A DNA stretch of 4,828 nt from a virus. Lineage: Duplodnaviria; Heunggongvirae; Uroviricota; Caudoviricetes. Position 1 is the stretch's first letter, and every line of letters starts with the position of its first letter. The stretch lies in IMG/VR virus record IMGVR_UViG_2541047125_000007, one strand, 5' to 3'. Made by a program: the position numbers and the translations under genes. The notes below the pieces were generated by a model. It was given only the letters and a program-made list of their open reading frames with translations. It did no database searches and was not told the origin of the DNA. Positions 3,880-4,828 of this stretch are shown here, piece by piece.

Positions 3880-4437
3880 ATGACCACTATTACCAAAGAT
3901 CGACTGCTGACAATCCAGCATTGGCGCGAAACATACGGACCGGGTAGCAACGTTGTGCTTCCAGCAGAAGAAGCGGAAGAGCTGGCACGGATTGCGCTGG
4001 CATCACTGGCAGCAGTATCGGATGAACGAGCAGCCTATGAATTATTTATGGAGAAGCGTTTCGGAGAATCTGTAGATCGCCGCAGAGCAAAAAATGGCGA
4101 TAGAGAATACATGGCATGGGATATGGCGCTTGGCTGGATTATCTGGTGTCACCGCGCCGCCATGCTTCAGGCTGGAAACTTTCGGGAAAATAAGGGTTCG
4201 TCAACCAATAATTTTCGGATAATCTCGGAAACGTCAACCAACTCTCCGGCAATCCCTGATGAGGTGTTGTCCGCAATCCTGAAGGTCGCCAGGCTTCGTG
4301 CAGATTTCGATGCTTCTGAAGTGGACAGGCGAGGTATCGGTAGTTGTCTGGATGAGGCCGAGCAAGAACTTATCGTTACCATTAACGAATACGCCAGTCA
4401 GATCGCAGTAGAAGCGACACAGGGGGAGAACCAATGA
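3880..4437 (+). CDS. Hypothetical phage protein (185 aa)
   Basis: ATG at 3880 is 2 nt after the upstream stop, with a weak SD (AAGGTGA). Stop is TGA at 4435-4437. It is in the same orientation and tightly packed with its neighbours. I do not recognise the family with confidence. Confidence 0.65.
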   Translation: MTTITKDRLLTIQHWRETYGPGSNVVLPAEEAEELARIALASLAAVSDERAAYELFMEKRFGESVDRRRAKNGDREYMAWDMALGWIIWCHRAAMLQAGNFRENKGSSTNNFRIISETSTNSPAIPDEVLSAILKVARLRADFDASEVDRRGIGSCLDEAEQELIVTINEYASQIAVEATQGENQ

Positions 4438-4511
4438 GCCGGCCAGATGCATTTGCAGGCGTTGCTATAGCTATTGCTTTTCTAGTATATGTTATTTGTC
4501 GGTGGGGGTAA
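4434..4511 (+). CDS. Putative 25-aa hydrophobic micro-peptide (MSRPDAFAGVAIAIAFLVYVICRWG)
   Basis: ATG at 4434 overlaps the upstream stop as ATGA and has a strong SD (AGGGGGAG at 4421-4428). Stop is TAA at 4509-4511. It has a single TM-like hydrophobic core and falls below the ORF-track length cutoff. Confidence 0.35.
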   Translation: MSRPDAFAGVAIAIAFLVYVICRWG

Positions 4512-4546
4512 AAACGTTCGCCGGGATTCACACCAAGGGAGGGAAT

Positions 4547-4651
4547 ATGTCGGATGATATTTCACTGGTAATGGAAGGCGCTCTGGCTGTTATTGCTGTT
4601 GTGGGTGTTTACTGCCTGGTTGTGTTTTTGATGGAGCGCCTGGGGAACTGA
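4547..4651 (+). CDS. Putative 34-aa hydrophobic micro-peptide (MSDDISLVMEGALAVIAVVGVYCLVVFLMERLGN)
   Basis: ATG at 4547 has a strong SD (AAGGGAGGG at 4535-4543, 3-4 nt spacing). Stop is TGA at 4649-4651. It has an acidic N-terminus and a TM-like core, and falls below the ORF-track length cutoff. Confidence 0.4.
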   Translation: MSDDISLVMEGALAVIAVVGVYCLVVFLMERLGN

Positions 4652-4661
4652 ATTCATTCCG

Positions 4662-4677
4662 TATGGGAATTCCCATA
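4662..4677. promoter_or_regulatory. 16-bp perfect palindrome TATGGGAATTCCCATA (possible operator or protein-binding site)
   Basis: The perfect dyad sits 11 nt after the last small ORF. No U-tract follows, so it is unlikely to be an intrinsic terminator. Confidence 0.35.
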
Positions 4678-4828
4678 TCGGGCAAAACGGTTTGCTGTAA
4701 AGCGAGAGTTAAGTAGAATTGCTGCGGGTGCTTGAGGCTGTCTGCCTCGGGCATGCCACCGTAAGGTAGACAGAGAAAAGCCCCAGTTAACATTACGCGT
4801 CCTGCAAGACGCCTAACATTAATCTGAG

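Follow-up and report, generated by a model that had tools for sequence, protein, structure and literature searches.

Two conserved hydrophobic micro-protein genes upstream of hok/sok in a lambdoid prophage region

This study concerns a stretch of 4,828 nucleotides of viral DNA (Caudoviricetes; IMG/VR record IMGVR_UViG_2541047125_000007), hereafter the window, and two small open reading frames (ORFs) that lie in it just upstream of a hok/sok type I toxin locus. ORF1 encodes a peptide of 25 amino acids and ORF2 one of 34, each with a single hydrophobic helix. We consider it likely that both are real, translated genes of the lambdoid early-right (post-replication, nin-like) region, each specifying a single-pass inner-membrane micro-protein that would act more like a modulator than a toxin. 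This reading is carried by the existence and conservation of both genes, the coupling of ORF1 to the gene before it, purifying selection on the encoded peptides, genomic linkage and published ribosome footprints on ORF2; beyond these observations, we infer the membrane insertion of the two peptides and their mode of action.

Two peptide genes that are not a chance pattern

The ORFs, their Shine-Dalgarno (SD) sequences and the segment that carries ORF2 are laid out as follows:

4422 to 4428, plus strand: SD sequence of ORF1, GGGGGAG with core GGAG, 5 nt before the ATG and within the last codons of the upstream gene
4434 to 4511, plus strand: ORF1, 25-residue single-helix peptide, ATG at 4434 and TAA at 4509-4511 (MSRPDAFAGVAIAIAFLVYVICRWG)
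4517 to 4689, plus strand: ORF2 cassette of about 173 bp between the ORF1 stop and the hok promoter, an insertion relative to 933W and pPE4
4537 to 4543, plus strand: SD sequence of ORF2, GGGAGGG with core GGAGG at 4538-4542, 4 nt before the ATG, as read from the sequence
4547 to 4651, plus strand: ORF2, 34-residue single-helix peptide of subtype A, ATG at 4547 and TGA at 4649-4651 (MSDDISLVMEGALAVIAVVGVYCLVVFLMERLGN)

Both ORFs lie where the initial annotation had placed them, with SD sites 5 and 4 nt ahead of their start codons, and the coupling that it had claimed for the first of them is there: the ATG of ORF1 at 4434 overlaps the TGA stop (4435-4437) of the gene at 3880-4437, forming an ATGA junction. 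The grand average of hydropathy is 1.24 for ORF1 and 1.40 for ORF2, and the best 15-residue hydropathy reaches 2.7-3.0. Uncharged stretches extend over 17 residues in ORF1, which is short for a transmembrane (TM) helix, and over 19 in ORF2, and the earlier view of the two as real translated genes with one hydrophobic helix per peptide is very probably right. On both strands of the window, no ORF of 20-60 amino acids other than ORF1 and ORF2 has both an SD core of 4 nt or more and a stretch of 17 or more uncharged residues; under the same criteria, 200 shuffles of the window yielded a mean of 0.04 such ORFs, a maximum of one and never two. The description of the pair is correct and does not reflect a chance pattern.

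ORF1, a widespread and overlooked peptide family

The window copy of ORF1 is a derived allele of a 27-residue family, which we define by the pattern M-x-W-P-[ED]-A-F ... G ... V-Y-x-I-C-R-W-G followed by a stop. It aligns to the family over its full length, is 84% identical to the nearest 27-residue alleles, and departs from the family by W3R, a replacement that recurs in other ORF1 alleles, together with an in-frame 6-nt deletion that removes residues 9-10. Most members have the SD sequence AGGAGGT and 19 uncharged residues, compared with which the SD of the window copy is weaker and its TM stretch shorter.

We gathered 249 copies of ORF1 from phage records, IMG/VR contigs and genomes, comprising 59 DNA alleles and 31 peptides, and the ATGA start is present in 248 of them. 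Positions M1, W3, P4, A6, G11, V20, Y21, C24, R25, W26 and G27 are invariant or nearly so; the core varies among hydrophobic or small residues and is rich in the latter (G11, A13, A15, A17). Variable sites occupy 23 of the 27 third codon positions as against 13 of 27 at each of the other two, the 6-nt deletion is the only insertion or deletion seen and is in frame, and the ratio of nonsynonymous to synonymous polymorphism (pN/pS) among these peptide-ascertained alleles is 0.27 in the ORF1 frame versus 1.06 and 2.17 in the other frames, which are interrupted by stops in 53-57 of 57 alleles. Since these loci had first been found by peptide similarity, a second sample of 116 loci was drawn that was anchored only on the conserved 5' end of hok/sok and in which ORF1 was detected by its DNA. 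ORF1-like DNA was present in 39 of these loci and intact in 37, among which one copy has a GTG start that preserves the overlap as GTGA and three carry missense changes (W26C at two loci and P4S); nonsense at codon 3 was found in 2 of the 39. The pN/pS ratio in this sample is 0.30, versus 0.89 and 2.58 out of frame. The ORF1 family is under protein-level purifying selection. The initial annotation had proposed conservation in relatives with synonymous-only changes as a check and disruption by stops or frameshifts as grounds for refutation; change is mostly synonymous in both samples (pN/pS 0.27-0.30 in frame versus 0.9-2.6 out of frame), and disruption is not seen in the great majority of copies (37 of 39 intact) in the sample that had not been chosen by peptide.

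Some copies are decaying. At one locus (L003, 1525-1602) a TGG to TGA change at codon 26 removes the last two residues, and stops at codon 3 are found at loci L473 and L404.

The genes that precede ORF1 fall by their C-termini into seven unrelated classes. Of the 43 distinct contexts of 22 nt that precede ORF1, 41 have an SD core of at least 4 nt, most often AGGAGGT with a spacing of 6 nt, and the conserved module of about 110 bp has its boundary some 20-25 nt before the ATG, a position common to copies behind unrelated genes. At divergent E. coli loci a 27-residue version (MNWPEAFAITGVAMAIAFLVYVICRWG), set apart from the window copy by the in-frame 6-nt indel, stands behind a DUF551 gene, with homology to the window starting about 24 nt before the ORF1 ATG, and a much more diverged copy (MTWPEAFATVGMVMAVALVVYSICRWG) stands behind yet another gene, again with ATGA. 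Judging from these junctions, ORF1 travels as a small module with its own SD inside the last codons of whichever gene precedes it, and since the module brings both the SD and the ATGA overlap, the peptide would be made by translational coupling whenever the upstream operon is expressed. That ORF1 might be joined by a frameshift to the protein encoded before it is also unlikely, because the upstream genes belong to seven unrelated classes. Where no hok/sok follows (locus L006 at 1894-1935 and several IMG/VR loci), ORF1 sometimes ends 4 nt or less before the ATG of the next gene (TAAccacATG...), and is otherwise followed by a strong terminator-like hairpin (aaaaccccggattgatggtccggggttttt); with both arrangements observed, ORF1 can be operon-internal or the last gene.

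A tblastn search places the ORF1 peptide in about 99 phage records, among them 933W, VT2-Sakai, BP-4795, Min27 and Shiga toxin (Stx) phages of the Stx1 and Stx2 types; in all five phage records that were opened the preceding coding sequence overlaps the start of the peptide match by exactly 4 nt, and the micro-ORF is unannotated. ORF1 DNA is present in 1634 of 5426 complete E. coli genomes (about 30%), with some 3100 copies and up to 7 per genome, and on about 181 plasmids of E. coli, Salmonella and Klebsiella, mostly of about 95-100 kb and non-mobilizable, where it lies behind DUF551 or eaa genes. The prediction that gene callers would miss such a peptide is borne out for ORF1, which is unannotated in 933W, Stx2a_WGPS2, TH18, pPE4, PhiR12_4 and Sakai Sp6 and has been called by just a handful of GenBank submitters; it escapes annotation nearly everywhere because it falls below the length cut-offs of gene callers. 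Scans of several ORF1 and ORF2 alleles against Pfam, PHROG and NCBIfam gave only insignificant matches and no model for ORF1, no entry among 15 billion collected proteins is the exact 25-residue allele of the window, and full-text literature searches for diagnostic peptide strings and for hokW/933W returned no match. The K-12 prophage that was checked, CPS-53 (yfdS-yfdT-ypdJ), has neither ORF1 nor ORF2. A degenerate start...CRW pattern, when scanned against genome contigs, proved too loose: of its 120 matches most were chance ones in unrelated phyla, only those in Escherichia and Shigella were real, and it gives no reliable taxonomic range.

Two apparent protein fusions were rejected. Clusters at 90% identity join one ORF1 allele with a 121-residue Shigella DUF551 protein and ORF2 with a 789-residue xanthine dehydrogenase, and in both cases the long protein does not contain the peptide; clusters that mix peptides of 27-34 residues with long proteins are an artefact of very short sequences, and such membership is unreliable for micro-proteins. 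Two of the records that carry ORF1 look odd in other respects: in PP818812.1 ('Actinobacillus phage vB_Apl-pPE4') the hok/sok region is nearly identical to the E. coli prophage version and the host assignment looks odd, and ON075799.1 (the 134-kb Vequintavirinae phage TH18) has an odd-looking composition with a lambdoid-type EaA/Ea22 block. These oddities may reflect contamination, mis-assembly or recent exchange.

Nothing here amounts to a new kind of biological system. ORF1 is one more small phage membrane protein without annotation, and it stands out mainly for its spread and for having been overlooked so consistently: it is under purifying selection and present in the Stx reference phages 933W and VT2-Sakai and in phage-plasmids, yet essentially never annotated, and in this sense offers a measure of the annotation blind spot for small membrane proteins. 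Adding ORF1, and correcting the start of ORF2 as discussed below, would be a concrete improvement in annotation.

ORF2, its cassette and its link to hok/sok

The claim that both peptide genes were unannotated stands for ORF1 but fails for ORF2, which is already known as a hypothetical, ribosome-profiled protein. The window copy is an exact match to RefSeq WP_001278460.1, a hypothetical protein of lambdoid prophages in enterohaemorrhagic E. coli (EHEC), and the allele in prophage Sp6 of strain Sakai (ECs_5710/XECs145), with 2 of its 34 residues changed, shares the SD and the place between ORF1 and hok/sok. Hücker et al. 2017 (PMC5597208) reported XECs145, a 162-bp Sakai ORF with a predicted inner-membrane product, as translated; its 3' 105 nt are the Sp6 copy of ORF2. 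In lysogeny broth (LB) the values were 79 reads per kilobase per million (RPKM) for RNA and 346 RPKM for the translatome, with a ribosome coverage value of 4.35 and a coverage of 0.99; the ribosome coverage value was 1.14 in the brain-heart infusion control, and footprints were almost absent in cold and osmotic stress (PMC5597208). That study assigned a 54-residue ORF with an upstream non-ATG start, for which no SD was found (PMC5597208). On the strength of the conserved SD and ATG/GTG codon we would put the start at MSDD, giving 34 residues. The footprints concern the Sp6 allele in uninduced cells.

The window copy conforms to the ORF2 core A-L-A-x-x-A-V-x-x-x-Y-C-L-x-V-x-L-M-[DE]-x-[LF]-x-[ND], which is closed by a stop codon. 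When 1.84 billion representatives were searched exhaustively with phmmer, six proteins came up, all at least 79% identical, and the close family is therefore narrow. In 933W and pPE4 the hok promoter follows directly on the ORF1 stop, at the place where the window has the additional ORF2 segment; this cassette is bounded by AAAACG direct repeats at 4511-4516 and 4684-4689, and its boundaries are ambiguous by 6 nt because of the repeat. More distant relatives occupy the same position. In the hok-anchored sample a subtype B, about 52% identical, has a GTG start followed by LVLKCALAIAAVMAIYCLAVVLMD[HR]LSD and is present but unannotated in phages Tritos, Evi and mEp460_ev081. Subtype C has ATG at the same codon followed by LVLKGTLAIAAVMTIYCLIVVLMERFSD and is carried by plasmids, in about 124 records from Shigella and 17 from Escherichia. 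On one of these plasmids, pWR501, it lies upstream of icsP, and the hok/sok that comes after it is a truncated, decayed remnant no longer recognised by Rfam. In the three subtypes, at about 50-76% identity, an SD is present, the start (ATG or GTG) falls on the same codon, the stop does not shift and there are no insertions or deletions; every allele of subtypes A and B keeps the SD, with a variable spacer, and subtype C keeps it too. The pN/pS ratio within subtype A is 0.21 versus 1.23 and 3.73 in the other frames, and that of subtype C against B is 0.30.

On the S. flexneri plasmid pWR501 the intact, unannotated ORF2-type gene (MLVLKGTLAIAAVMTIYCLIVVLMERFSD) is at 1501-1590 and has an AGGAGG SD; some 290 bp separate it from icsP, and it falls within the long regulatory region ahead of that gene. 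An ORF2 allele of subtype A that ends two residues early (...FLMDRM*) is present at 8 IMG/VR loci.

Every ORF2 context examined is followed by hok/sok or by a decayed remnant of it. This holds for 75 of 75 ORF2 loci ascertained through ORF1, for 10 of 10 contexts of the exact allele, for both peptide-ascertained phage records that were opened (Tritos and mEp460_ev081) and for Shigella pWR501. ORF1 is less closely tied, being followed by hok/sok in 166 of 228 peptide-ascertained loci and otherwise by other genes or a terminator hairpin. Viewed from the other side, upstream of the 116 prophage hok/sok loci there were 38 intact ORF2 copies (subtype A or B), 13 loci with only a 3' stub of ORF2, 20 with ORF1 directly adjacent, 20 with a different unannotated 62-residue ORF with two helices, and 25 with something else. 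ORF2 is thus linked to hok/sok but dispensable for it.

The two-helix ORF of about 62 residues, with two hydrophobic segments (MKNALQFLFVAFWLFASCMPIIFTARYMEKIDVLILMFGHINALFLGVFMAVMCIEYWR), takes the same slot 5' of hok/sok, for instance at 1934-2113 of locus L005 and in 20 of 116 contigs (e.g. L370). Counting the ORF2 stubs, about two-thirds of the sampled prophage hok/sok loci have, or once had, a small hydrophobic ORF upstream.

One might read this adjacency as function, with ORF2 a working accessory of hok/sok, either modulating Hok or protecting against it, or acting as an upstream ORF that reads into the hok promoter or mRNA and tunes its expression, and with ORF1 as an unrelated passenger. 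Such a role would suit the constancy of the position across all ORF2-family members, the presence of intact ORF2 in 38 of the 116 loci, the arrangement in subtypes B and C, where the ORF2 stop lies about 10 nt from the hok -35 element with no terminator between, and the persistence of the adjacency even though the subtypes have diverged (to about 50% amino acid identity) far more than the hok 5' region next to them. Plain linkage by descent can, however, produce the same adjacency, and many hok/sok loci do without ORF2: 933W has ORF1 adjacent instead, plasmid copies of hok/sok match the window only from the -10 element onward, and 13 of the 116 loci hold only the stub. In pWR501, conversely, ORF2 of subtype C is intact while hok/sok has decayed, and ORF2 has no sequence similarity to Hok or Mok. 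On balance we regard this role as rather unlikely.

A broader version, to which we would give a small but real chance, is that ORF2, with its subtypes, is a hitherto unrecognised protein component of prophage and plasmid hok/sok modules and that ORF1 is a near-universal 27-residue 'cap' gene of lambdoid accessory operons with a membrane target in the host. If so, ORF2 might be a membrane partner that tunes or counteracts Hok, or its expression might feed hok transcription, and the target of ORF1 might lie, for example, in superinfection exclusion or in the control of a transporter or sensor, for a peptide found in about 30% of E. coli genomes yet in no family database. The position of ORF2 next to hok/sok, including the intact copy beside the decayed locus on the Shigella virulence plasmid, offers a testable lead on a possible overlooked protein neighbour of such toxin-antitoxin loci.

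A third possibility, very improbable in our opinion, is that the ORFs have no peptide function and that the DNA is kept as a recombination linker, as a promoter or operator, or as a device for terminating and restarting translation at the end of the upstream gene. The ORF1 module boundary shared behind unrelated genes is what mosaic junctions would give, ORF2 is dispensable, and its cassette includes a palindrome (described below). But the third-position excess and low pN/pS are specific to the reading frame, hydrophobic residues are replaced by hydrophobic ones that keep the helix while the end motifs stay fixed, swaps of ATG for GTG leave the ORFs translatable, the single insertion or deletion seen in ORF1 is in frame, its other frames are almost always stopped, and footprints on ORF2 have been published (PMC5597208).

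Mode of action and prophage context

The initial annotation had likened the peptides to membrane-targeting toxins. One or both being membrane-damaging toxins, whether of type I character or as effectors of lysis or abortive infection, seems to us improbable. In size, hydrophobicity and single helix they do resemble TisB, DinQ, ZorO, Ibs and ShoB, and, like Hok/Gef and Ldr, these are small single-helix hydrophobic peptides often found on prophages; ORF1 and ORF2 are themselves prophage-borne, as such peptides often are, and adjoin a bona fide type I toxin locus. They differ from Hok/Gef and the other type I toxins in being unrelated in sequence, with no match to HOK_GEF or any other toxin family for either peptide in Pfam, PHROG or NCBIfam. 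Rfam places no antitoxin RNA over ORF1 or ORF2, its sole match being the sok of the downstream hok, although an antitoxin RNA of an undescribed kind may exist there. The mRNA folds are no more stable than those of shuffles (z = -0.22 and +0.96), and open, strong SDs with ATGA coupling are the reverse of what is typical of type I toxins, whose translation is silenced. The sole antisense promoter-like site, at 4512-4484, rests on codons that other alleles do not keep, and ORF2 is efficiently translated in normally growing lysogens, with the ribosome coverage value of 4.35 coming from healthy LB cultures (PMC5597208). As a promoter for an antitoxin that antisense site was rejected: it is a 9/12 match of which 0.7 are expected by chance, and its -10 element needs CTA-GTA-TAT codons that most alleles lack.

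The other suggestion of the initial annotation, that of regulatory membrane peptides, remains plausible. Small regulatory inner-membrane proteins of bacteria, of 20-50 amino acids with one TM helix, such as MgtS, MgrB, AcrZ, KdpF and CydX, act by binding larger membrane proteins, and these had been missed by annotation and were found by ribosome profiling. ORF1 and ORF2 resemble them in size, in the single predicted helix, in conserved juxtamembrane residues and in small-xxx-small motifs, a likeness in how they might work and no more; there is no homology, and ORF1 and ORF2 are phage-borne. The juxtamembrane ends and small-residue spacing of ORF1, and the A-L-A...Y-C-L...L-M core of ORF2, would fit single-pass proteins that bind a larger partner. 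In the scheme that we propose, ORF1 would be produced with its operon by coupling, ORF2 would have arrived on its cassette with an SD of its own, each peptide would insert into the inner membrane as a single-pass helix, and each would contact a larger host or phage membrane protein helix to helix, in the manner of small accessory proteins, modulating its partner rather than damaging the membrane.

The manner in which ORF2 was acquired recalls the phage morons, such as bor and lom of lambda and those of HK97. As with a moron, the ORF2 segment is a discrete insert between genes that adjoin in the 933W-type arrangement, and ORF2 gives footprints in uninduced lysogens; unlike morons, it has no promoter or terminator of its own that consensus scans could find in its flanks, its cassette is much smaller, and its position is tied to hok/sok.

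Several observations weigh against the favoured reading of two real genes for membrane micro-proteins, in part or as a whole. Both genes are dispensable: at 13 of the 116 hok loci nothing but a stub of ORF2 remains, and 2 of the 39 ORF1 copies are interrupted by a nonsense mutation. The window allele of ORF1, with W3R and two residues lost to leave a 17-residue stretch, could be less functional or impaired. ORF2 occurs 1-5 times per genome, at some 1470 places in the E. coli collection, and the RIBOseq reads assigned to XECs145 may be multi-mapped; the same study took only ORFs of at least 30 amino acids, which places ORF1 outside its scope (PMC5597208), and the 162-bp XECs145 interval covers only the last 22 nt of ORF1. 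For ORF2, the pN/pS values between subtypes in frame +1 (0.47, 0.45 and 0.57) are nearly as low as those of the real frame (0.30, 0.38 and 0.51), which makes this test alone moderate evidence, the signal within subtype B is weak, and the charges on the flanks of the helix give no consistent topology across subtypes. The modulator mechanism, finally, draws on analogy with known small proteins.

The window belongs to the early-right region of an O157:H7-type lambdoid prophage, and 4380-4700 matches many EHEC chromosomes at 100% identity. In one of these chromosomes the annotated genes run, in order, from a Cro/CI-type regulator through a YdaT family protein, a DnaT-like (O-like) protein, replication protein P, DUF1627, several hypotheticals and the 34-residue hypothetical to hokD, DUF968, RusA and antiterminator Q. 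The features that flank the two peptide genes are these:

3880 to 4437, plus strand: upstream gene of 185 amino acids to which ORF1 is coupled (RefSeq WP_000137954.1; phrog_14306, phrog_660, phrog_60)
4662 to 4677, no strand assigned: perfect 16-bp palindrome (TATGGGAATTCCCATA) between the ORF2 stop and the hok promoter
4691 to 4719, plus strand: inferred hok promoter, TTTGCT, 17 nt, TAGAAT, from alignment to the Tritos TTGGCG-17-TAGAAT site
4726 to 4828, plus strand: 5' part of the hok/sok type I locus (Rfam sok RF01794, 61.3 bits, E 2.6e-12), cut by the window end

The hok/sok locus begins 75 nt 3' of ORF2, and in identical genomes the hokD coding sequence comes next beyond the window end. 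The putative hok promoter, which is the right-hand limit of the micro-ORF block, was placed by the Tritos alignment; a consensus scan flagged the Tritos site and not the window copy. Such a scan of 4200-4828, which is weak evidence, showed no promoter-like or terminator-like site on the plus strand. The palindrome at 4662-4677 extends to 22 bp in relatives (CGATATGGGAATTCCCATATCG) and persists at loci that have lost all of ORF2 but the last 10 nt or so. It was considered as an intrinsic terminator and set aside: the scan does not flag it, and without a T-run it is not a canonical one. It may serve to bind a protein.

Two observations concern the genes further upstream. The 185-residue protein is clearly similar over its N-terminal 100 or so residues, as seen in translation, to K-12 YfdT (CPS-53, 11874-12179), with the common motif ...ERAAYELFMEKRFG..VDRRRAKNGD.EYMAWDM.LGWIIW..., and its C-terminal half matches phrog_14306, so that by sequence it looks like a mosaic of two parts. 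Near the start of the window, at about 8-50 and 236-292, short repeats of the GTCACGAC/GTGACGGAAG type (e.g. tgtcacgatgagtcacgacgcgtcacgcatatgtcacgacaagtcacgaca) are clustered inside the O-like replication gene and look like origin iterons.

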